DNA of 64,000 bases, taken from contig JAVEXP010000001.1 of assembly GCA_034003985.1 (NCBI GenBank), forward strand, positions 155,347 to 219,346. Direction: 5' to 3'. The notes beneath the pieces are model-generated. The model did no database searches. It had not been told where the DNA came from and worked only from the letters and a program-made list of their open reading frames with translations. Shown piece by piece: positions 7,270 through 60,182 of the stretch. Origin of the DNA: Patescibacteria group bacterium. Its GTDB lineage: Bacteria > Patescibacteriota > Patescibacteriia > Buchananbacterales > UBA6539. The position numbers and the translations under genes were made by a program. Within the stretch, counting starts at the first letter, position 1. Each line of letters starts with the position of its first letter.

Positions 7270-8081
7270 TGTTGTTAAACGACCAAAAATTGGCCGGGGC
7301 TTTACTGGCGGCGCGCTATGCCTTTATGCCTAACCGTTTGAAATATTGCGGACCGGATAATAATGCGGAATTGTTTGGTTATCTTGCCAATCAAACCGCT
7401 GATTTGGGTTTAAAGGAGATGCTCCAGGAATTTCAAACAATGTTTCCTTATTTAAAGTTGATTGCCGAAGCAAACCATATTGCCGATCCGTTCAACTATC
7501 GGGTGGTTGAAGCTTATTGGATTGGTAATGAACTATTGGAGAAAGTCAGGATACAAAATTTTTATCGTTATCTGGTTGATGGCCAGCAATTGAAGAAAAA
7601 GTTTAAATTAAGTTCTTTGGAAAAACTTTTTGGCAAGATTCCTTTGGGCGCCAAGCCGCACCACAGTTTTCATGTTTTAAATGTTCCGAAGCGAACCGGG
7701 TATTATCCGGTTGAACATACTTTAAAAACCATCAACGCTTGTATTATCACGCCGGCGAAAATCAAGCGCTTGAATCTTGAATCATGTTCGGCTGAAGGTC
7801 GGGTTAAAAAAATCAAAGAGCAACGAAATATTTTAAAAAAGATTATGGTTGAAGCCAGGCCATTGGTGGCTGAGGGTAATTGCCTGGAAATCGGTGAAGC
7901 CAGGGAGCAGGAAGTTTTTGTTGAATCTAATAATCAGGCCTTGGTCAAAGGATTTAAAGTTGGTGATGATGTGGCATTGCATTGGAATTGGGTTTGTGAT
8001 TTATTGACGCCAAGCCAGGCTGAAAATTTGTTGAAGTGGAATAATTATAATTTAAAATTGCTTAATCTGAATTATGCCTAA
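7266..8081 (+). CDS. Hypothetical protein, translationally coupled to the hydrogenase small subunit. Possibly a hydrogenase accessory protein.
   Basis: 271 aa. Its start overlaps the EamA stop and its end overlaps the start of the delta subunit. No known motif recognised. Confidence 0.45.
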   Translation: MMLLNDQKLAGALLAARYAFMPNRLKYCGPDNNAELFGYLANQTADLGLKEMLQEFQTMFPYLKLIAEANHIADPFNYRVVEAYWIGNELLEKVRIQNFYRYLVDGQQLKKKFKLSSLEKLFGKIPLGAKPHHSFHVLNVPKRTGYYPVEHTLKTINACIITPAKIKRLNLESCSAEGRVKKIKEQRNILKKIMVEARPLVAEGNCLEIGEAREQEVFVESNNQALVKGFKVGDDVALHWNWVCDLLTPSQAENLLKWNNYNLKLLNLNYA

Positions 8082-51453: not shown

Positions 51454-52317
51454 ATGCCTAGGAGTTTATTAATTACCAAAGCTGATGGTAATAAAGAGGT
51501 TTTTTCGGTTGATAAATTGAAAAAATCAATGTTTCGTTCCGGTGTTAGCGAGCCGGTTATTAACCAAACCATCAGCCAAATAAAGAAAAAGATTAAGCCC
51601 GGGGTCAGTACTTCTCGGATATATCGCTTGGCTTTTAACAATTTGAAATCAGCTAATAAAGTTTACGCCGCCAAATACAGTTTAAAAAAAGCGGTGATGG
51701 ATCTTGGTCCCGACGGTTTTCCATTTGAAAAATATTTCGCCGCCCTATTGAAAGATCAGGGTTATTTGACTTTTACTAATGTGGTTGTTAAAGGCAAGTG
51801 TATTACTCATGAAGTAGATATTATTGCCGAGAAGCCCCAGAAAAATATTCACGCGATTATTGAGGCTAAATTTCATTCTCGCAGCGGCGGTAAAACCGCC
51901 AGCAAGGATGCTTTATATACCCATGCTCGATTTTTGGATATTAAAGAATTTTGGAATCGACAAAAAATTTTAGGCGCTAAACCCAGTACTGGTCAGCTTG
52001 AAAGTTGGTTAGTAACTAATACTAAAATTACGGCGGAAGCTAGACAGTACTGCTTGTGTTCCGGAATCAAAGTCGTAGGTTGGGATTATTCATCAATTGG
52101 TGATAATTTGGAGCAGATGATTCATCACAAGGGATTGTATCCGATAACGGTTTTAACCAGTCTTAATAATGAATCTAAACGCAAACTGCTTGGTCATGGG
52201 GTGGTATTATGTAAGGATCTATTGGATGATAAAAATTCCAAATTATTAAAGCGACTATATTTAAAAAAAGGGCAGTTAAATAGATTACTTGATGAAGTTA
52301 AACTATTACTACGCTGA
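51454..52317 (+). CDS. ATP-cone domain fused to a PD-(D/E)xK (restriction-endonuclease-fold) domain protein.
   Basis: N-terminal ATP-cone-like region (ITKADGNKEVFSVDKLKKSMFRSG). Nuclease-fold motif HEVDIIAE...IIEAKFH (D...E-x-K). Confidence 0.5.
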   Translation: MPRSLLITKADGNKEVFSVDKLKKSMFRSGVSEPVINQTISQIKKKIKPGVSTSRIYRLAFNNLKSANKVYAAKYSLKKAVMDLGPDGFPFEKYFAALLKDQGYLTFTNVVVKGKCITHEVDIIAEKPQKNIHAIIEAKFHSRSGGKTASKDALYTHARFLDIKEFWNRQKILGAKPSTGQLESWLVTNTKITAEARQYCLCSGIKVVGWDYSSIGDNLEQMIHHKGLYPITVLTSLNNESKRKLLGHGVVLCKDLLDDKNSKLLKRLYLKKGQLNRLLDEVKLLLR

Positions 52318-52723
52318 ATCTGCTCAGTATTAAATAAGAGTTATGTGTCGTAAAATATTATAGAAACATTTGGCAGGGCAGGGAAGAGGAGATTGAATGA
52401 TTAAGATAATTGATTGATATAATTTTTTATTTTGATGATATTTGATAGATCTATCAAATATTTTTTTAATTTAATTATCTAGTTGGATGTCCATCATTGT
52501 CCAAAAGAAATTTATTTTTAATATTTTTAGATTGAATATTTAATTCCACGGAATTTTGTTTCTTTTTAGAGCCATTGGAGTAACTTGATTGGCTCTTTGC
52601 TGCTATTTGTGGATAAGTTATTAAATATGTAGTGTCGTATAAGATATATTGTGCGACACTACATATTTAATAAAACAGCCTTAAATAATAATTAAAATTC
52701 ATCCCCTCGCTCAACGGCGAGTT

Positions 52724-52752
52724 GACAACCTGGGTAATAAGATATAAAGTTT
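52724..52752 (+). promoter_or_regulatory. Candidate sigma70-like promoter (TTGACA ... TATAAA or TAAAGT) driving the small-peptide transcript.
   Basis: ttgaca at 52724-52729, with -10 candidates 15-17 nt downstream. Confidence 0.35.
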
Positions 52753-52836
52753 ATTGTCGGGAACATTAAAAATATTTTGTCCTTCCCTATTTGACGGTTA
52801 TTCTTGAAGATTGCCAGCAGATACGGGAGGGCAAAA

Positions 52837-52878
52837 ATGCATATCTTGCAGTTGCCAGGCCTGGTCGACCTGTGCTAA
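52837..52878 (+). CDS. 13-codon upstream ORF (MHILQLPGLVDLC) with a near-perfect Shine-Dalgarno site.
   Basis: GGGAGGG lies 6 nt upstream of the ATG at 52837. The stop TAA is at 52876-52878. Confidence 0.3.
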   Translation: MHILQLPGLVDLC

Positions 52879-52897
52879 ATGCCACTCCTATTAATTC

Positions 52898-53074
52898 ATG
52901 AGCTTTAGGCTTATGTACCACGCAATCAAAACCGGAGTGACATTAGCCGTCGGCTTAGCCGTACTGCAGATGTTCCTCCCTGATGTGGGATCCAAGTTAG
53001 TTGAGTTAATCACTACGGTGATTGACATTATGCTGGTTACCATCAACCAAGCGTCGACTAACTTACCCTCATAG
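52898..53074 (+). CDS. Small hydrophobic peptide (58 aa, two predicted TM segments): MSFRLMYHAIKTGVTLAVGLAVLQMFLPDVGSKLVELITTVIDIMLVTINQASTNLPS.
   Basis: I read the ORF manually; it is under 60 aa. It lies 20 nt after the 13-codon uORF. It is followed by the terminator hairpin ggccctagg...cctgggcc plus a T-rich run at about 53075-53115. Confidence 0.35.
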   Translation: MSFRLMYHAIKTGVTLAVGLAVLQMFLPDVGSKLVELITTVIDIMLVTINQASTNLPS

Positions 53075-53132
53075 ACGACATAAGGCCCTAGGATACTCTC
53101 CTGGGCCTTTTCCTTTGTCTTTGAATATTAGT

Positions 53133-53792
53133 TTAGCTATTTATTTTTCGATAGCTTAAATAAGAGTAGATCATAATCAGTGTTACTCCGCTGATGATTG
53201 AGACAATAAATATCCGCCAATAAATTTGGTTTGGTAAAAACGCTCCTAGAATAGTTATTAACCCCATGGCCACAAATATCTTTCCGCCGAATCGGTGAGT
53301 TTGATTCCAAACCTTTTCATTGGACAATGTCCAAGGAGTTCTGATCCCGATAAACCAATTAGGTTTTATTTTTGATAGGTAATTTCCAATGATCAAAAAT
53401 AGTACCCCGATTGATAACGGTACTACTATATTGATCGGGATTTGATAACCAAGGCCGACTAAGCCAATATAAAAATAGATCAAAGCAAAATAGCCGATTA
53501 TAATAGCCTTAAAAACATGGTAGGTTTTTTGAAATTGTGAATAGCGTTCAGCTTTGGGGTCAATTAAAGGAATAATTAAGAATGTTAAATACGAAACAAT
53601 CATTATCGCCGGGATCATGAAAGCGCCAACCATTTTATTGGAATAACTGTCAATTTCTCCTTGATAATTCCAGTGCATTGGCACTTGTTCTGGAAAATGG
53701 GTATAGAAATAAAAACTACCAACTATAACCAGGATAATTGTTAGCAGCGGGATTAATTCAGTGGTTGGACTGAGGTTGACTGGATTTTTCAT
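53133..53792 (-). CDS. SdpI/YhfL-family (DUF1648) membrane protein, a putative toxin-immunity and signalling protein.
   Basis: 6-TM protein with the conserved extracytoplasmic motif PMHWNYQGEID and the C-terminal arrangement typical of SdpI-like proteins. Its start overlaps the stop of the ArsR-family gene. Confidence 0.7.
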   Translation of the reverse strand: MKNPVNLSPTTELIPLLTIILVIVGSFYFYTHFPEQVPMHWNYQGEIDSYSNKMVGAFMIPAIMIVSYLTFLIIPLIDPKAERYSQFQKTYHVFKAIIIGYFALIYFYIGLVGLGYQIPINIVVPLSIGVLFLIIGNYLSKIKPNWFIGIRTPWTLSNEKVWNQTHRFGGKIFVAMGLITILGAFLPNQIYWRIFIVSIISGVTLIMIYSYLSYRKINS

Positions 53793-54058
53793 ATTTTTTT
53801 ATTGAAAAAATTATATAACTCTTTAGCGACTTCCTCAAAGATGCTTAAATTTAAAGAGTAGATCAGTTGTTGCCCTCGTCGGCGGTAGCTGATTAAACCG
53901 GCATTTTTTAAGATAGTTAGATGATGAGATAATGACGGCAAGGTTATATCGAAGTTTATCGCCATTTCATTAACCGACAGCTCTTTCCTTTTAAGCAAGG
54001 TAAGGATTTTTCTCCTGGTCGGATCGGCTAAAGCGGCGAAAGTTTTGTTTAAGCTCAT
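53789..54058 (-). CDS. ArsR-family transcriptional repressor (SdpR-like).
   Basis: The wHTH signature ALADPTRRKILTLL...SLSHHLTIL...GLI. Start taken at the ATG at 54058, because the track's longer start would run into the palindrome. Confidence 0.8.
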   Translation of the reverse strand: MSLNKTFAALADPTRRKILTLLKRKELSVNEMAINFDITLPSLSHHLTILKNAGLISYRRRGQQLIYSLNLSIFEEVAKELYNFFNKKI

Positions 54059-54095
54059 AGCAATTATCCCTTCCCCTAATGTTTGACAGCTAAGC

Positions 54096-54139
54096 AAGTT
54101 ATTATTTAGATAGTTAGATAACTATCTAAATAATAACTT
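54096..54139. promoter_or_regulatory. Perfect 44-bp palindrome (21-bp arms around a 2-nt centre): AAGTTATTATTTAGATAGTTA-GA-TAACTATCTAAATAATAACTT. A candidate operator for the ArsR/SdpR-like repressor.
   Basis: I checked it base by base: positions i and 45-i are complementary for all 21 pairs. It lies 38 nt upstream of the repressor start codon. Confidence 0.65.
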
Positions 54140-54172
54140 AAAAGAAAGTGGTGGTCAAATTTTTATCCACTG

Positions 54173-54574
54173 CTATAAATCGTTCCAGTAAAGTATTTTT
54201 AGGTAAGTAATGCTTAAAAAAAGGATACAGGCTTGCAAAACATCAGTTAAATTAGGATTTTGGCCAAAGAAGAAAGGCGTGATTATTGTTAAAACCGGGG
54301 CTAGATACATCAATAGATCGTGTTTAATCTGCTGTTTCCAGGTAAGTCGGGCAGAAATGTAGAATTGGTTGTTAGCTTCAAAATGTTTGATTTTTTTTCG
54401 GTCACGGGTATGAACTAAAATACCAAGAGTGATAAAAACTAAAGCTGGAACCAATGACACGATTGTTTCGGTCAGTGATCTTATTTTGTAAAGATAACTA
54501 AAGTAAATATATCCAACTACCACGACGATCGACCAGGTTACTACCAAAGATATTTTTGGGAACTGGCTATTCAT
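54173..54574 (-). CDS. Hypothetical small membrane protein (4 TM).
   Basis: 133 aa ORF with hydrophobic helices. Confidence 0.45.
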   Translation of the reverse strand: MNSQFPKISLVVTWSIVVVVGYIYFSYLYKIRSLTETIVSLVPALVFITLGILVHTRDRKKIKHFEANNQFYISARLTWKQQIKHDLLMYLAPVLTIITPFFFGQNPNLTDVLQACILFLSITYLKILYWNDL

Positions 54575-54577
54575 ATG

Positions 54578-55822
54578 TTAAGGCAGGTACTCTAAGGGAT
54601 TGACTGGTATGCCGCCTAATCTGACCTCGAAATGAAGATGCGGGCCGGTGCTCAAATTACCGGAACCGGGTGTTCCAGGCATGCCGCCACTTAGAGCGAT
54701 GGCTTGACCCTTGGTGACATATTGATCCTCCTTTACCAACGGTTTGGAAACATGTCCATAGACAGTTGAAATGTCGTTATTGTGGATTAGCATGATATAA
54801 GCATAACTGGAATCGCCGGCAAATTTAACTCTGGCAACATAGCCTGATTCCGCGGCGGTGAGGGTTGTCCCCTGGTAGGCCCTGATATCAATTGCCGGAT
54901 GTTCAAAAATATAACGGAAAGGATAATCGGGATCGTGAAAGTAAGCCGATATTCCCCGACTGTGATCAAGCGGCCAGGCTAACCTGGCATCGCCGAAGTC
55001 TTTAAATCTTTCGGCTAATTCGCGTTGTTCCAGTTCAGCTCTGATTGTTTTTTCGATGCTGGATATTTCAGAGTTAGCTTGCTGTTGCTCAAGCTGAAGC
55101 TGATACTGGTAATTTTGGTATTGTTTTTGAGTTAGTCGGGCTTGAACCAACAGCATTCCTTGGGCGGTATTTCTTTCTTCCAGCTCCGATCGCTGGCTTT
55201 GGAGCTGGTCTTTAAGTTCGTTTTCCAGCTTTATTTTTCCTTCCAGGTCATTTTTTTCCTTTTCAAAATTTATCTTTTCATTTTTTAGACCGCTTAGGGC
55301 ATTTTTTAAATCATTGTGGATTTCTTCTGTGTATTTAATTTGATCAAAAAAATCAGAAAAAGAGTCATGATTGAGGACAATCTCAAGCGGACTGATTTGA
55401 TCATTTCGATGTATTAGCCTTAAATATTCTGATATTTTTGCTTTTTGATCCTTGATTCTATTTTCCAATACCTTGATTTCCAGATTAGCCGCCTGAATTG
55501 CCAGTTGGTTTTCTTCAATTCTGATATTGGTGCTTTCAATATCCAAATTAATTTTGGCAATTTGGTTATCAATAATCGAAATTTGGTTTTGCAGTCCCCT
55601 AGCCTCTTGCTGTTTAATTTTAATTTGTTCGGCATAAGCATCGATTTCTTTTTGCAAAACATCAATTTCTCGGCGTTTTTGTTCAATTTGTTGATTGAGG
55701 ATCGTGACATCTTCTTCGGCCTTGGTTGGTAAAATAAAAAAATTGGTCAACAATAAACTAACCAATAGCAGCTGGCTTAGCCGATAATATTTTTTGTATT
55801 TTTGTTTTTTATTTTGGTACAT
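54578..55822 (-). CDS. M23-family peptidoglycan DD-metalloendopeptidase with a long N-terminal coiled coil (EnvC-like).
   Basis: Heptad-rich region of about 250 aa, then an M23 LytM domain (HxxxD ... HLHFE). Confidence 0.8.
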   Translation of the reverse strand: MYQNKKQKYKKYYRLSQLLLVSLLLTNFFILPTKAEEDVTILNQQIEQKRREIDVLQKEIDAYAEQIKIKQQEARGLQNQISIIDNQIAKINLDIESTNIRIEENQLAIQAANLEIKVLENRIKDQKAKISEYLRLIHRNDQISPLEIVLNHDSFSDFFDQIKYTEEIHNDLKNALSGLKNEKINFEKEKNDLEGKIKLENELKDQLQSQRSELEERNTAQGMLLVQARLTQKQYQNYQYQLQLEQQQANSEISSIEKTIRAELEQRELAERFKDFGDARLAWPLDHSRGISAYFHDPDYPFRYIFEHPAIDIRAYQGTTLTAAESGYVARVKFAGDSSYAYIMLIHNNDISTVYGHVSKPLVKEDQYVTKGQAIALSGGMPGTPGSGNLSTGPHLHFEVRLGGIPVNPLEYLP

Positions 55823-55898
55823 GCTGAATTAATTATAATCAGAAATTTTTCCTAAAGCAATTGTTTTGAATCGTTAAAATCCATGTTTTAAATCGGCT

Positions 55899-57362
55899 TT
55901 AGCCTAAGTTGTTGCCAAGATCTTTAGCTTGGAGTTTTTCGATGGCCATTTCAATTCGATTTAGGCTTTCAGTTTTTCCCAGAATGGCGGCGACCTCAAA
56001 ATTTCCTGGACTGGCTTGGCGTCCAGTCAGGGCGACGCGCATCGGCCAAAGCATATCTCCTATGCTGTAATTATTATCTTTGATGAAGAGAGTAATGATT
56101 TTTTCCAGTGTCTCGGTTTGCCAGTCGTTGGCCGGTATTTTTTCCAGCTCAATTTTAATCAATTCCAAATTTTTCAAAGTTGCTTGGCCGGTCGATTTTT
56201 TCCAAACTAAAAGCTTGGTTTCATAATCCGGTAGCTGGAAAAAAAAGCCAGTGGCCTCAACAATCTCATTAAGGCGTTTTATCCGTTGTTGCTCGGAAGC
56301 GATAACTTTTTCAAGGTTGATTTCTTTATTTTTAACATTAATGCCGGCCTGGGAAAAATAAGGCTCACAAAGTTTTGCCAGTTGGTGTGGCGACTTGCTC
56401 CTTAAGTAGTGGCCATTGAGCCAGTCTAGTTTTTGGACATTGAATATCGCTCCTGACTTATTTATTTTATCAATCGCAAAAGTTTTTATCATTTCTTCAA
56501 GATTGAATATTTCTTGGTCGGTTCCGGGATTCCACCCCAAAAGCAGAACAAAATTAAGCAAGGCTTCCGGTAAATATCCCTTGGCTAAGTAATCTTCAAC
56601 CGCCACATCGCCTTGCCGCTTGGAAAGTTTCGTCCGGTCGGAGTTGAGCAATAACGGCAGGTGAGCAAAATTTGGTTTATCCCAGTTGAAAGCTTTGTAT
56701 AGCAATAAATGTTTGGGAGTTGACGGCAGCCACTCCTCTCCTCTGATAACATCAGTCACTTCCATATCGTGATCATCAATGACGGAAGCCAAATGATAAG
56801 TTGGAAAACCGTCTGATTTTAAAATGATCGGGTCATCCAGGAGTTTGTTGTCAAAAGTTACTTTTCCTCGAACCAGGTCAATAAATTCGGTTTGACCAGT
56901 TTTTGGCATTTTAAATCGGATGACATATTCTTGATTGTTAGTTATTTTTTCTTCAATTTCAGCTGGTGTTAAATTTCGGCAATGGCCGTCGTACATTGGT
57001 GGTAGACCTTTTTGGGTTTGAAGTTGGCGTAAATTATCTAAACGATCCTTGGAGCAGAAACAATAATAAGCTTGTGAAGCTTCAACTAATTTTTTAGCGC
57101 CAGTTTGATATTTTTCCAAGCGTTCGGATTGGAAAACAACTTTTTTATTATCGCGGTTAAGGCCAAATTTTTCCAAGGTCGTAATCAGGCTTTCGGCGGC
57201 CCCCTCAACTTTTCTGGTTTGATCGGTATCTTCAATTCTTAACAAAAAATTACCCCCGTGGTGACGGGCAAAAAGATAGCTGTATAAAGCCGTTCTTAAA
57301 CCGCCGACATGCAAAAAACCGGTGGGGCTGGGAGCAAAACGAGTGGTGATTTTTTTAGCCAT
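55899..57362 (-). CDS. gltX: Glutamyl-tRNA synthetase.
   Basis: RFAPSPTGFLHVGGLRTALY (HIGH region) and KLSKR (KMSKS-type). Confidence 0.9.
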   Translation of the reverse strand: MAKKITTRFAPSPTGFLHVGGLRTALYSYLFARHHGGNFLLRIEDTDQTRKVEGAAESLITTLEKFGLNRDNKKVVFQSERLEKYQTGAKKLVEASQAYYCFCSKDRLDNLRQLQTQKGLPPMYDGHCRNLTPAEIEEKITNNQEYVIRFKMPKTGQTEFIDLVRGKVTFDNKLLDDPIILKSDGFPTYHLASVIDDHDMEVTDVIRGEEWLPSTPKHLLLYKAFNWDKPNFAHLPLLLNSDRTKLSKRQGDVAVEDYLAKGYLPEALLNFVLLLGWNPGTDQEIFNLEEMIKTFAIDKINKSGAIFNVQKLDWLNGHYLRSKSPHQLAKLCEPYFSQAGINVKNKEINLEKVIASEQQRIKRLNEIVEATGFFFQLPDYETKLLVWKKSTGQATLKNLELIKIELEKIPANDWQTETLEKIITLFIKDNNYSIGDMLWPMRVALTGRQASPGNFEVAAILGKTESLNRIEMAIEKLQAKDLGNNLG

Positions 57363-57418
57363 AAATAATAAATTAGAGGTGAAAACCTCTGTTTAATTTT
57401 ACTATTTTTAATTAACTT

Positions 57419-57447
57419 TGACAAATAGGATGGAATCGACTAAAATA
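57419..57447 (+). promoter_or_regulatory. Consensus-like sigma70 promoter: TTGACA, 17-nt spacer, TAAAAT.
   Basis: ttgaca-aataggatggaatcgac-taaaat upstream of an AAGGAGG RBS. Confidence 0.5.
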
Positions 57448-57469
57448 AGATTTTTAAGGAGGTTTTGCC

Positions 57470-57799
57470 ATGACGATTGAACATTGGGAAATCGGCCCAA
57501 CGGCCGAAGAGGCTTGGCAGCGAGCGCTGTCTAACGGCAAAGATTGCACCTTCGTTGGTTGGACGGCCTTTGTGGCAATTATCAAGTGGTCTCAGGAGGG
57601 TCACGGTGAAGTGGTGATGGTGGAAAACGATCGGCCGGTTGAAGGCATGACTGCGTCTCAGGTAATTGAGTGGTGTCGCGATGGTCAAGTATTGCGTTTC
57701 CGGACCATTACCAAAATGGATAAACCATTTGATCATCCGTTGTGCCAACTGCTGAAAGTCGGCAAACCGGCTTTCAAGGGTGTTGCTCTCAGCGATTAG
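57470..57799 (+). CDS. GC-rich orphan hypothetical protein (109 aa).
   Basis: Strong RBS AAGGAGG. About 53% GC. The terminator-like ggggcaaccc plus T8 follows. Its 3' end overlaps the convergent tagA-like gene by about 10 nt. Confidence 0.45.
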   Translation: MTIEHWEIGPTAEEAWQRALSNGKDCTFVGWTAFVAIIKWSQEGHGEVVMVENDRPVEGMTASQVIEWCRDGQVLRFRTITKMDKPFDHPLCQLLKVGKPAFKGVALSD

Positions 57800-58547
57800 G
57801 GGCAACCCTTTTTTTTATTTGATCAATCAAGACCAACCAAGGGAAGATTACAGTAGCAGTAAAGATTCTTTTGTATCTTTGAGGTTGAAGAATTAAACGG
57901 AATAGCCATTCTAATCCGAGATTCCTTAAAATTTTTGGTGCTCGCAAAACATTGCCGGAGATGTAATCAAAGGCACCCCCAATCCCAACGGCGACTTTAA
58001 TATTTGGTAATTGATCAAGGTGATAGAAGATCCATTTTTCTTGTTTGATTTGGCCCAGGGCGACAAATAAAATGGCTGCCTGGGAATCATTAATGCGTTC
58101 AATGAGCTCATGGTCAATTTCTTTGGGGTCGGTAATATCTCCCCCGCTTTCGGCGCCGGCAACAATTAGATTGGGTAAATTTTCTTTTAACACTGTTGCA
58201 GTTTGAGCTGCAACAGTTTCGGCGGCGCCTAATAAATAAACTGAACAATTTTGTTGTTCAGCTAATTCACTGATTAACCAGACGAGGTCAACGCCGGTTA
58301 CTCGTTGCAACCGCTGGCCTAAGAGTTTGGCGATTTTAATCAATCCGACACCGTCGGCCACGGCGATATCGGCATAATTTAGGATTTCTTTAAATTCATG
58401 GTCTTGATTTGTGGCGACAATAAATTCCGGATTGGGAGTCACTAAATAATGCTGGTCATTTGAGTGCAAAAAATGGTTCACCTGTTCTAAAACTTCTTGC
58501 GGTGATAAATTATCGATTTGAACTCCCAATATATCAACCTTGTCCAT
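57789..58547 (-). CDS. WecB/TagA/CpsF-family glycosyltransferase (N-acetylmannosaminyltransferase-like).
   Basis: ILGVQIDNLS...VTPNPEFIV...ADGVGLI is the family signature. Confidence 0.8.
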   Translation of the reverse strand: MDKVDILGVQIDNLSPQEVLEQVNHFLHSNDQHYLVTPNPEFIVATNQDHEFKEILNYADIAVADGVGLIKIAKLLGQRLQRVTGVDLVWLISELAEQQNCSVYLLGAAETVAAQTATVLKENLPNLIVAGAESGGDITDPKEIDHELIERINDSQAAILFVALGQIKQEKWIFYHLDQLPNIKVAVGIGGAFDYISGNVLRAPKILRNLGLEWLFRLILQPQRYKRIFTATVIFPWLVLIDQIKKRVAPNR

Positions 58548-58559
58548 ACATTTAAATTA

Positions 58560-59123
58560 CTATTGAGATGGATTCAAAGTGAAACTTTTAATAATTTTAT
58601 ATTGCGATCCTTGGGGGTGAAGCTGGCTGTGCATCAATTCAATATGGTTGATTTTGAATTCTAGGTTTGGCGTTCTTAGATTTTGAGTCTTAAAGATTGT
58701 TTTGGTTTTGATCCGAGCCACAGTCAGATGCGGCTTCCATGGCCTGTCGTCCAGACTGATGCCGCTAGTCGTTAATTTTTTTCCGAGGGTTGCTTGTAAT
58801 TTCGTCAGTTCTGATCCAAATTTTTCTTTGACTTCAAGGATAATCGTAGTGGGATTTTTCAAATCAGGGAAAGCGTTAATTTTAGAAGTAATTAGCGACA
58901 TGGGACTATGCTGACGGCAAGTGGTCTTGATAATTTCTTCAATCAATTTAATTTCGCGTTCGTTGCGGTTGCCTAAAAAGTGTAAAGTCAGGTGTAAGCC
59001 GGCGGGTTTGACATAATGAATTGCCTGATGGGGGTTAATTTTTTTGGCTTGGGAAATAAAACCAGCTAGGATATTCTTCATTTCATCAGGTAAGCTGATG
59101 GCAATAAAAATTCGCTTGTCCAT
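58560..59123 (-). CDS. RNA 2',3'-cyclic phosphodiesterase (2H family, LigT/ThpR).
   Basis: Two H-x-T/S-x motifs (HLTLHF and HLTVAR). Start taken at MDKRIF to avoid overlapping the divergent radical-SAM gene. Confidence 0.75.
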   Translation of the reverse strand: MDKRIFIAISLPDEMKNILAGFISQAKKINPHQAIHYVKPAGLHLTLHFLGNRNEREIKLIEEIIKTTCRQHSPMSLITSKINAFPDLKNPTTIILEVKEKFGSELTKLQATLGKKLTTSGISLDDRPWKPHLTVARIKTKTIFKTQNLRTPNLEFKINHIELMHSQLHPQGSQYKIIKSFTLNPSQ

Positions 59124-59162
59124 AATTGAATTATAGCATTCAAAAATGGTATAATCAAGCCG

Positions 59163-60182
59163 ATGAAAGAAGCAAAACATTATCAAAAGTTGGCAAATAA
59201 TTTAGCGGCTTGTGGACTTTGCAATCATTTTTGCCGGATTGAAAACGGTCGGCGCGGGCTGTGCGGGGTGAGATTGAATTGTGATGGGGTGCTATATACT
59301 TTAGTGTATGATAAAGTCGTGGCGGCCAATATTGATCCGATTGAGAAAAAACCCTTGTATCATTTTTTACCAGGTTCCAAGACATTTTCAATCGCCACGG
59401 TTGGTTGTAATTTTCATTGTGACAACTGTCAGAATGCCGATATTTCCCAGCTACCCAAGGATTCCAATTGGTCGACGAAAGATTTACCCGGTTCTGCTTT
59501 GACACCGGCAGAAATTGTTGAATCAGCTTTGATGTCCGGCTGTCAAAGCATTGCTTATACTTATACCGAACCAACAATTTTTTTTGAGTTGGCCTTGGAT
59601 TGTATGAAATTGGCCAGGTCCAAGGGGCTGAAAAATGTTTGGGTTTCCAACGGGTATACCAGTACGCCAGCTTTAATACAAGCCAGAGATTATCTGGATG
59701 CTGTTAATGTCGATTTAAAATTTTTTAATCGTCAGAGCTATTTAAAAATTGCCGGGGCCAAGCTAGAACCGATTTTGGAAAATTTAAAGTGGTATAAGAC
59801 TAATGGCGTTTGGTTGGAAGTAACAACTCTAATTATCCCCTCCCTCAACGACAATCCGCAGGAGCTAAACAATATCGCCGAATTTATCAGCGGCGAATTA
59901 GGCCAAAATGTCCCTTGGCACATTTCAGTTTTTCATCCGGCTTTCAAATTATTGGATCATCCGGCCACTTCTCGTGATATAATTAATTTAGCTTGGGATA
60001 TTGGCCAGCAAGCCGGGTTGAATTATATTTATGTCGGAAACATTGAAGACCAAAATCGGAGCAACACTTATTGTCCGGGATGTAAAAGTTTGATCGTTCA
60101 GCGTACCGGGTATTTAGTTAAACGGTTTGACGAGGATGGCCAATGTCCAAAATGTCATGCGAAAATTGATTTGATATTATAA
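59163..60182 (+). CDS. AmmeMemoRadiSam-system radical SAM enzyme.
   Basis: N-terminal CxxC...C cluster (CGLCNHFCRI), the radical-SAM CNFHCDNCQN (CxxxCxxC) motif, and a C-terminal CPGC...CPKC. Confidence 0.8.
   Translation: MKEAKHYQKLANNLAACGLCNHFCRIENGRRGLCGVRLNCDGVLYTLVYDKVVAANIDPIEKKPLYHFLPGSKTFSIATVGCNFHCDNCQNADISQLPKDSNWSTKDLPGSALTPAEIVESALMSGCQSIAYTYTEPTIFFELALDCMKLARSKGLKNVWVSNGYTSTPALIQARDYLDAVNVDLKFFNRQSYLKIAGAKLEPILENLKWYKTNGVWLEVTTLIIPSLNDNPQELNNIAEFISGELGQNVPWHISVFHPAFKLLDHPATSRDIINLAWDIGQQAGLNYIYVGNIEDQNRSNTYCPGCKSLIVQRTGYLVKRFDEDGQCPKCHAKIDLIL

Follow-up and report, generated by a model that had tools for sequence, protein, structure and literature searches.

A candidate structured leader upstream of a conserved small membrane protein gene, and a dif-like site shared with tailed phages, in Patescibacteria

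Between a gene for an ATP-cone/Mrr-like protein and a convergent sdpI-like gene, in a 64,000-nt stretch (the window) of contig JAVEXP010000001.1 from a Patescibacteria group bacterium, lies a region that probably consists of two conserved elements, apparently unrelated, plus filler. One is a candidate structured leader RNA together with the gene for a 53-aa membrane protein that it precedes; the other is a dif-like quasi-palindrome that recurs on tailed-phage contigs. Taken jointly, these would amount to an undescribed class of structured leader (riboswitch or protein-responsive) gating a new 53-aa protein near ftsQ and pcsB, plus an off-terminus Xer-type site, present a short way upstream of the terminase genes in 80 or more tailed phages that have no integrase of their own nearby; it is unlikely that this joint reading holds in every part, and its parts are graded separately below. 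An original prediction, made from the window alone, had described 52318-53132 as free of annotated genes, with an AT-rich palindrome field on the left and a promoter-uORF-peptide-terminator unit on the right (uORF, upstream open reading frame). We read positions 51800-53700, listed the open reading frames (ORFs), and compared the region with 14 distinct related loci (L001, L002, L004-L006, L008-L010, L021-L026) obtained via protein searches, contig look-ups and one metagenome scan; with the window this makes 15 loci, L003 being a duplicate of the window and L007 of L006. Identity of the peptide to that of the window ranged among relatives from 87% down to ~36%.

The 53-aa ORF was present in all 15 loci. 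A 58-aa ORF with two transmembrane segments had been proposed, and such an ORF does exist (52898-53074), but the conserved reading starts at the ATG at 52913 and gives 53 aa. Its product is already in NCBI as hypothetical protein RB292_01010 of Patescibacteria group bacterium (metagenome-assembled), so the region is not gene-free, and the truly noncoding stretch is 52318-52912. A profile search accepting E-values up to 0.001 gathered a family of 42 clusters at 90% identity (51-57 aa; 15 representatives at 50% identity), every one labelled hypothetical and every one from Patescibacteria or Parcubacteria sources; the family appears to be confined to Patescibacteria. Differences at codon positions 1:2:3 between close relatives numbered 9:2:20, 9:3:20 and 10:6:25, and summed over pairs 640:379:896, an excess at third positions that therefore argues for coding selection on this frame. 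The frame conservation that had been put forward as a check on the peptide is thus borne out, and, judged by comparison across the loci, 52913-53074 is a real, conserved gene. Each locus examined had one copy, syntenic in most, and synteny was kept across members only 36-55% identical. AlphaFold placed helices at residues 2-21 and 23-49 with a pLDDT (predicted local distance difference test) of 88, and the protein is modelled as a membrane helix at the N terminus that an LP(D/E) turn joins to a second helix, which is amphipathic. Neither Pfam nor NCBIfam gave a match to the protein, and a fold search of the PDB with the peptide model found none either.

A folded leader of ~155 nt precedes the gene in 15 of 15 loci. 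Twelve leader sequences were aligned by MAFFT without structural information, and the structure was derived with RNAalifold. The hairpin P1+P2 comprises 21 pairs, 10 of which show compensatory double changes, with 93.5% of cells paired. Between P1 and P5, the lowest-energy fold of the intervening segment was two separate hairpins, P3 and P4, in 9 of the 12 sequences; P3 is absent from L006 and L010, and the P3 and P4 of the window were assigned by eye, its own lowest-energy fold being different. The GUC of the P4 loop is invariant while the stem sequences vary by locus. Helix P5 is long-range, joining a C-rich segment of the leader to codons 8-9 of the gene (~codons 7-10 in relatives), so that the start codon at 52913 sits in a closed domain. 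Three of its six pairs show double changes, and its partners (leader strand/ORF strand) are CACUCC/GGAGUG in the window, UAGCCCC/GGGGCUA in L010, UUAAGCCCUC/GGGGGUUUAA in L021 and UUAAGCC/GGCUUAA in L025.

Controls separated this structure from chance pairing. Pair counting gave 91.5% of cells paired, against 33-54% when the partners were slid, and 13 double-change pairs, against 4-7 in the slid controls; the covariation score of 0.392 compares with 0.223 ± 0.021 in shuffles and was reached by 0 of 500. Folding of the whole transcript gave a z score of -8.4 and a lowest-energy structure that contains P5. A covariance model of the leader (a sequence-plus-structure profile) hit each of the 15 loci exactly once and had no other match in the 64-kb window. 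Conserved secondary structure with compensatory changes supports our designation of this segment as a structured cis-regulatory leader. It matched none of 4227 Rfam families, and relaxing the threshold to E <= 10 in the region yielded only spurious microRNA-like hairpin matches; a known RNA gene here (RNase P, tmRNA, 6S or riboswitch) was rejected, with nothing from Rfam or ARAGORN. Over the entire window (1-64000), neither a tRNA gene nor an Rfam family passing its gathering threshold was seen. A scan of a genome collection with the close-relative leader pattern returned 10 matches, in unrelated taxa, about the chance number as roughly estimated.

Promoter and terminator motifs bound the leader and the gene, so that 52722-53117 is predicted to be a stand-alone gene. 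The promoter is of sigma-70 type (TTGACA, 17-nt spacer, TAAAGT); the original prediction had it at 52724, and the TTGACA hexamer lies at 52722-52727, with a predicted transcription start near 52757. A strict promoter scan (-35 hexamer TTGACA, or TTGACT in L008, a 16-18 nt spacer, and TAnnnT) was positive in 11 of the 15 loci, 23-42 nt upstream of P1 in ten of them and 98 nt upstream in L024. The predicted terminator, a GC-rich hairpin followed by a T run, was located at 53082-53117, and a hairpin with T run also follows the ORF in L002, L006, L009, L021, L022 and L023, with a looser version in L008; that is, it was seen in all eight loci checked that reach past the stop codon (the window and seven others). 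The proposal that the right half is a self-contained promoter-leader-peptide-terminator unit therefore stands, and the unit recurs in 15 of 15 loci. One component was incidental: the 13-codon uORF, reported with a perfect Shine-Dalgarno (SD) sequence, is present but confined to this lineage, its ATG missing in L001, L002, L004-L006, L008-L010 and L021-L023, and what had been taken for the SD, GGGAGGG, belongs to conserved helix P1 as its 3' strand.

The promoter would give a transcript of ~360 nt ending at the intrinsic terminator, in which P5 would hold translation off until opened. A recognisable SD precedes only ~8% of window genes, the median SD duplex energy being -0.4 kcal/mol, and since starts are mostly SD-independent an open start region matters; structure about the start codon is, given this scarce use of SD, a plausible way of holding translation off. 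We infer that P5 gates the gene in response to some trigger. The helix might be opened by a ligand or a protein, by RNA processing, or by an alternative pairing in which the G-rich strand of P1 captures the C-rich strand of P5. This last pairing is possible in every sequence, both strands being compositionally biased. Most window genes have an AT-rich upstream region and no SD. With riboswitches and protein-binding leaders (for instance, Rfam classes upstream of small membrane transporters) the leader shares a multi-helix fold of the 5' untranslated region with covariation and an expression platform overlapping the start codon; it differs from them in having no Rfam family, one copy per locus, no regulon, and a 53-aa hypothetical protein downstream.

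The second conserved element lies in the AT-rich left half, where only two pieces are conserved, the core of an inverted repeat and a half-site. The repeat had been described as having 13-bp arms and spanning 52626-52667; it is present but longer, with 21 pairs across 52618-52673. Within this local palindrome sits the full site (site 2), whose conserved 24-bp core at 52634-52657 follows the pattern GTCGYWTAA-N6-TTGTGCGAC (GYGTCGYWTAA-N6-TTGTGCGAC with two more bases on the left), a dif-like layout. The core is kept in eight distinct host loci (the window, L001, L002, L006, L009, L022, L023 and L026) although no alignment of the flanks is possible; of the two arms only the left varies, and the centre is mostly GATATA or GGTATA, with TCTTTA in L026. 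There is one full site in the 64-kb window and at most one per host locus, except for L002 with a second variant copy. Half-site 1 resembles one arm of the full site, and a half-site motif, TGYGTCGYAAAATAT, likewise follows the upstream gene in L004, L006, L022, L023 and L026; the background for the half-site 10-mer in the window is ~1 per 32 kb. A similar half-site lies 3' of the peptide gene in L006, L009 and L021. In two distant genomes (window 51454-52317 and L026 7919-8821) the gene directly upstream of the half-site encodes a 287-aa protein with an ATP-cone domain, an Mrr-like nuclease fold and an AF1548-like C-terminal domain, which could bind DNA; it has no detectable similarity to proteins of 182 aa in L005 and 187 aa in L025.

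The same site occurs in phage DNA. Its pattern was matched in 35 viral contigs, the reversed control pattern giving a single match, and symmetric arm variants brought in another 38 and 7 contigs. In all, 80 or more phage contigs carry the site, always one per locus, with centres that differ between contigs; those sampled were tailed phages by terminase, portal and adaptor matches. Among the 36 phage loci with a TerL homologue, 35 have the site upstream, at 137-3704 nt from terL, and TerL was the sole gene family recurring beside it. Phage L060 has a site identical to that of the window over 28 of 28 nt, and the sample it derives from also yielded host locus L006, where the identical 24-mer is found. 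No host genes, which would indicate an integrated prophage, were found beside the site on phage contigs. Contig L032 (IMGVR_UViG_3300037067_006566) has at 7552-7700 a full site and then two direct GTCGCATAA half-sites within ~110 nt, an arrangement resembling the extra half-sites of the hosts and the third Flp-binding element of FRT.

In layout, with 9-bp inverted arms flanking a 6-bp centre, the site matches a tyrosine-recombinase core. The L056 phage variant, GTCGCATAA-TGTATA-TTGTGCGAC, comes near the XerC half of E. coli dif, and what it has in common with dif is CGCATAA-TGTATA-TT; we take E. coli dif to be GGTGCGCATAA-TGTATA-TTATGTTAAAT. That string appears in published work on dif (PMC3025954). 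Also pointing to a recombinase site are the single invariant arm and free centre, genes for Xer-family tyrosine recombinases at the same host locus in four relatives (L004, L005, L021 and L025, all in the interval between ftsQ and the peptide gene, matching XerC/XerD profiles at 1e-57 to 1e-63, under the equivalog cut-offs), flanking-interval gene content that varies as at an integration hot spot, a diverged site 18 nt upstream of xer in L021, and an integrase gene beside the site in phage L048. The L021 arrangement is like that of the XerS/difSL module, in which xerS adjoins difSL (PMC5357621), whereas the window has no xer in its 64 kb. Set against Xer/dif systems more widely (the single-recombinase modules XerS/difSL and XerH/difH, Xer-exploiting integrative elements or IMEX, and P1 loxP near pac), the site shares inverted 9-11-bp arms, a 6-bp centre, one arm more conserved than the other, similarity of arm and centre to the XerC half of E. 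coli dif, additional half-sites of the kind seen in FRT, and occurrence on mobile genomes that lack their own recombinase. It differs in that the host copy is away from any GC-skew switch and the phage copies are on tailed phages, upstream of terL. Borrowing of host Xer machinery by phages is so far known mainly for filamentous phages; the loxP site of phage P1 lies near pac, a precedent that fits both the facts pointing to a recombinase and those pointing to another dimeric DNA-binding protein. Most likely the site binds a dimeric DNA-binding protein. That it is a putative core site for an Xer-type tyrosine recombinase, an attachment or resolution site common to hosts and phages, is a tentative reading that we favour while stopping somewhat short of calling it probable.

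Several observations weigh against the account preferred here. The leader may be passive and always folded, and the peptide ORF of L004 (1955-2113) has an in-frame TAA. For the site, there is no tyrosine recombinase gene in the 64-kb window, one is near the site in only 3 of 80 phage loci, the host loci that do have xer here mostly have no intact site (L004, L005 and L025), no recombination junction or product was observed, the position upstream of terL would also fit a packaging signal or a late-operon control site, and the fourfold-site skew discussed below tracks gene strand rather than side of the site. The L004 TAA replaces a conserved Glu codon by a two-base change, with the rest of the gene and the leader intact, and could be a pseudogene, an assembly error or read-through. 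The points on the site leave room for an alternative that is less likely than the recombinase reading but must be taken seriously, namely that the palindrome binds a dimeric host protein (a transcription factor or DNA-bending factor) and is not a recombination site, phages using it upstream of the terminase and late operon for packaging initiation or late-gene control, and hosts upstream of the small-protein gene. The phage copies suit this idea in occurring exactly once per locus, upstream of terL and sometimes within 50-270 nt of it, with recombinase genes almost never near; symmetric versions, common among them, suit a homodimer. On the host side the locus is not a terminus, and xer is found at loci lacking an intact site. 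The half-sites also resemble the NrdR-box half-sites CACAA and TTGTG. This host-factor explanation is however strained by the distance from the site to the host promoter, which varies from 72 to 148 nt with terminator-like hairpins intervening in L022 and L023, and by the same features that favour a recombinase: a free centre between fixed arms, one of them invariant, in the pattern typical of tyrosine-recombinase cores, together with the Xer-like genes (one of them 18 nt from a site), the varying flanking genes and the L048 integrase. A LexA box was rejected: L025 has lexA and dinB nearby but no full site. We consider it highly improbable that the inverted repeat instead acts as an RNA hairpin, whether as a terminator or processing signal of the upstream operon or as part of a long non-coding RNA. 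In its favour, the plus-strand stem has G-U wobbles where the opposite strand would have C-A mismatches, the AT-rich region is more stably folded than its shuffles (z -5.8), and terminator-like hairpins follow the site in L022 and L023; but in 4 of 7 relatives a U-U mismatch in mid-stem is uncompensated, while one arm never varies, which argues for a DNA site over an RNA hairpin. Moreover, the interior of the region is unconserved even among close relatives, Rfam gave no match, and the same motif occurs in phage DNA in either orientation. Also rejected was a long non-coding RNA whose ends would be held together by the purine-rich tract after half-site 1 and the C-rich tract that follows site 2, the cognate duplexes being no better than shuffled or non-cognate ones (z -0.01 to -1.0).

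Least probable of all the alternatives is that the AT-rich half is a replication landmark, either oriC or a dif site at the terminus. For such a landmark speak the 22-27% GC with a perfect DnaA-box 9-mer, the switch of gene orientation from plus to minus at this point, the dif-like layout of the core, and GGGCAGGG motifs that converge on the site from opposite strands. These GGGCAGGG octamers match the E. coli KOPS consensus and lie at window 13015, 51073 and 52376 (+) and 54068 (-), pointing toward the site from both sides. Only four in number, they follow the coding strand, and KOPS-like polarity, by which the GGGNAGGG motifs would mark the site, was rejected on those grounds. An oriC was likewise rejected: the DnaA box is single and at chance frequency, and there is no sign change in skew. 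Sites of the dif type are recognised by similarity to known sites, uniqueness in the genome and a location where strand bias changes sign (PMC1914069, PMC3025954). Ours has two inverted arms around a 6-bp centre, within the 6-8 bp of dif sites, and resembles dif, but total GC skew is positive on both sides of it. Coding-strand GC skew at fourfold sites was +0.010 ± 0.018 for plus-strand genes to the left and -0.072 ± 0.069 for those to the right, and -0.188 for the minus-strand gene to the left and -0.284 ± 0.053 for minus-strand genes to the right; the right-hand minus-strand genes of L006, L022 and L023 had similar values, ~ -0.30 to -0.33. With no skew change at the locus, the site is therefore not a canonical dif, and the locus is not a terminus. 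The minus-strand block, moreover, is only 6 kb long, after which plus-strand genes resume. The skew of this block (53133-59186) is as expected for genes long on the lagging strand.

For the right half, the alternative is a peptide toxin locus, either a type I toxin-antitoxin system or an SdpC-like toxin with SdpI immunity and an ArsR/SdpR-like regulator, in line with the suggestion of a peptide toxin or bacteriocin-like transcript; we regard this as improbable, and that suggestion found no support. The product is small, hydrophobic and two-helical, and its highly structured leader encloses the start codon, as do the leaders of hok or tisB mRNAs. With type I toxin mRNAs (hok, tisB, dinQ, zorO) the unit shares a small hydrophobic product no longer than 60 aa, a 100-150-nt leader, a long-range helix burying the translation start, and its own promoter and terminator. 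It differs in that no antisense RNA was detected, the gene is single-copy per locus and syntenic across a wide lineage, and several conserved hairpins, the invariant GUC loop of P4 and an almost invariant P1 make the leader more like a ligand- or protein-binding one; the likeness is real but confined to mRNA architecture. The patchy, multi-copy distribution of type I toxin-antitoxin systems was not seen either, there being no second copy in the window. Nor was there a minus-strand promoter-like site at 52760-53110, although a consensus scan is weak evidence on this point. The SdpC-like version draws on the convergence of the gene with sdpI and arsR in the window, L006, L009, L022 and L023, and on an ABC-2 transporter nearby in L008; the arrangement peptide gene-sdpI-arsR mirrors the order sdpC, sdpI, sdpR in B. 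subtilis. The two systems share a convergent peptide gene, an SdpI-family protein, an ArsR-family repressor and a conserved palindromic operator upstream of arsR. They differ in that the peptide here is without similarity to SdpC or any toxin family, has a net charge of ~ -1 (that is, it is not cationic), and has neither a signal peptide nor a double-glycine leader; sdpAB-like genes are lacking, and the gene is kept without neighbouring sdpI and arsR in L004, L024, L025 and L026.

Table 1. Features of the region, with positions in the 64-kb window
Feature	Positions	Strand	Basis or remark
Half-site 1, TGTGTCGTAAAATAT	52344..52358	+	resembles one full-site arm; just past stop codon of upstream gene
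Purine-rich tract GGCAGGGCAGGGAAGAGGAG after half-site 1	52372..52392	+	similar tracts follow half-site 1 in relatives
Perfect 24-bp palindrome ATATTTGATAGATCTATCAAATAT	52438..52461	.	direct count and shuffles
TGTGGATAA, DnaA-box sequence	52608..52616	+	single box in region
Full site 2, GT-GTCGTATAA-GATATA-TTGTGCGAC-AC	52632..52659	.	28-bp quasi-palindrome, 9-bp arms, 6-bp centre
Predicted sigma-70-type promoter	52722..52750	+	consensus scan; recurrence in relatives
Leader hairpin P1+P2 (P1 52776-52786/52825-52835; P2 52791-52798/52813-52820)	52776..52835	+	RNAalifold
13-codon uORF, incidental	52837..52878	+	ATG lacking in most relatives
Leader hairpins P3 (52838-52850) and P4 (stem 52856-52859/52869-52872)	52838..52872	+	segment folds
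Long-range helix P5 (52883-52888/52934-52939)	52883..52939	+	RNAalifold and covariation
Gene, 53-aa two-helix membrane protein	52913..53074	+	profile search, codon-position differences, AlphaFold
Predicted intrinsic terminator	53082..53117	+	found in window, recurs in relatives

Every sequence feature that the original prediction named exists, with small shifts of coordinates (Table 1), and the description of the left half as AT-rich is correct (22-27% GC, with 43-48% in the right half). The comparison with relatives nonetheless altered the account of that half. A palindrome field is not a single thing there: the inverted repeat is its conserved element, and the palindrome and most of the AT-rich DNA are unconserved. 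The perfect 24-bp palindrome is real and beyond chance, a 12-nt arm being reached in 0 of 2000 shuffles of the region and 0 of 60 shuffles of the window, but it is lineage-specific and absent from all relatives (missing, for instance, in L001, L006, L022, L023 and L026). We rejected it as a second ArsR/SdpR-like operator, despite the similar half-sites, since its spacing is off by 8 bp and it is missing from relatives. The DnaA-box 9-mer had been put at 52601-52609 and is found seven positions on; it marks no origin, with 16 matches at up to one mismatch in the window where 17 are expected, and only three loci (the window, L001 and L026) keep it, at a spacing of 14-15 nt on the upstream side of the full site. 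The same 9-mer recurs as a DnaA-box-like motif (GTGGATAA-like) at window 54163-54171, 5 nt upstream of a putative arsR -35 hexamer, as in several genomes (L023, L006). Four lineage-specific items appear to make up the filler: the uORF, the DnaA box, the 24-bp palindrome and the AT-rich DNA that separates the half-site from the full site. Cues from a single sequence can mislead: the perfect SD with its uORF and the DnaA box were incidental, and relatives were needed to find the conserved parts.

The usual gene order at these loci is alr, ddl, ftsQ, a long spacer and the peptide gene, with sdpI, arsR, a small membrane protein gene, a gene for a pcsB-like M23 peptidase and gltX convergent on it. 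What lies between ftsQ and the peptide gene differs among genomes: the ATP-cone/Mrr-like gene in the window and L026, the xer genes in the four loci named above, and no gene at all in L006, L022 and L023. Convergence with an sdpI-like gene had been predicted, and the neighbour is indeed of the SdpI family (Pfam, 2.7e-21), followed by a gene of the ArsR family. These belong to the minus-strand block at 53133-59186 (sdpI, arsR, membrane protein, pcsB-like, gltX and others), 6 kb within an otherwise plus-strand stretch. Upstream of the ArsR/SdpR-like gene, at 54097-54140, is a near-perfect 44-bp palindrome whose core, TATTTAGATA-N10-TATCTAAATA, is kept in L007, L022 and L023, and which is therefore probably the repressor's own operator; its half-site is similar to that of the palindrome at 52438-52461, with a different spacing. 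In L024 (10193-14395) the peptide gene adjoins an EamA fragment, a large serine recombinase and cI/LexA-like repressors, and this downstream neighbourhood looks like an integrated element.

The finding is composite, and its two parts merit follow-up separately, the leader with its small protein on the one hand and the dif-like site of hosts and phages on the other. Most Patescibacteria are uncultured, and only a few regulatory RNAs and small proteins have been described from them; in this case a leader with clear covariation, absent from Rfam, is coupled to a conserved small membrane protein in a neighbourhood of cell-division and cell-wall genes. The 24-bp site, common to host chromosomes and many tailed-phage contigs, links those phages to their hosts. 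Were the recombination reading true, tailed phages, presumably of Patescibacteria, would borrow the host Xer machinery to integrate or circularise, and the site would reveal how they do so without an integrase of their own.

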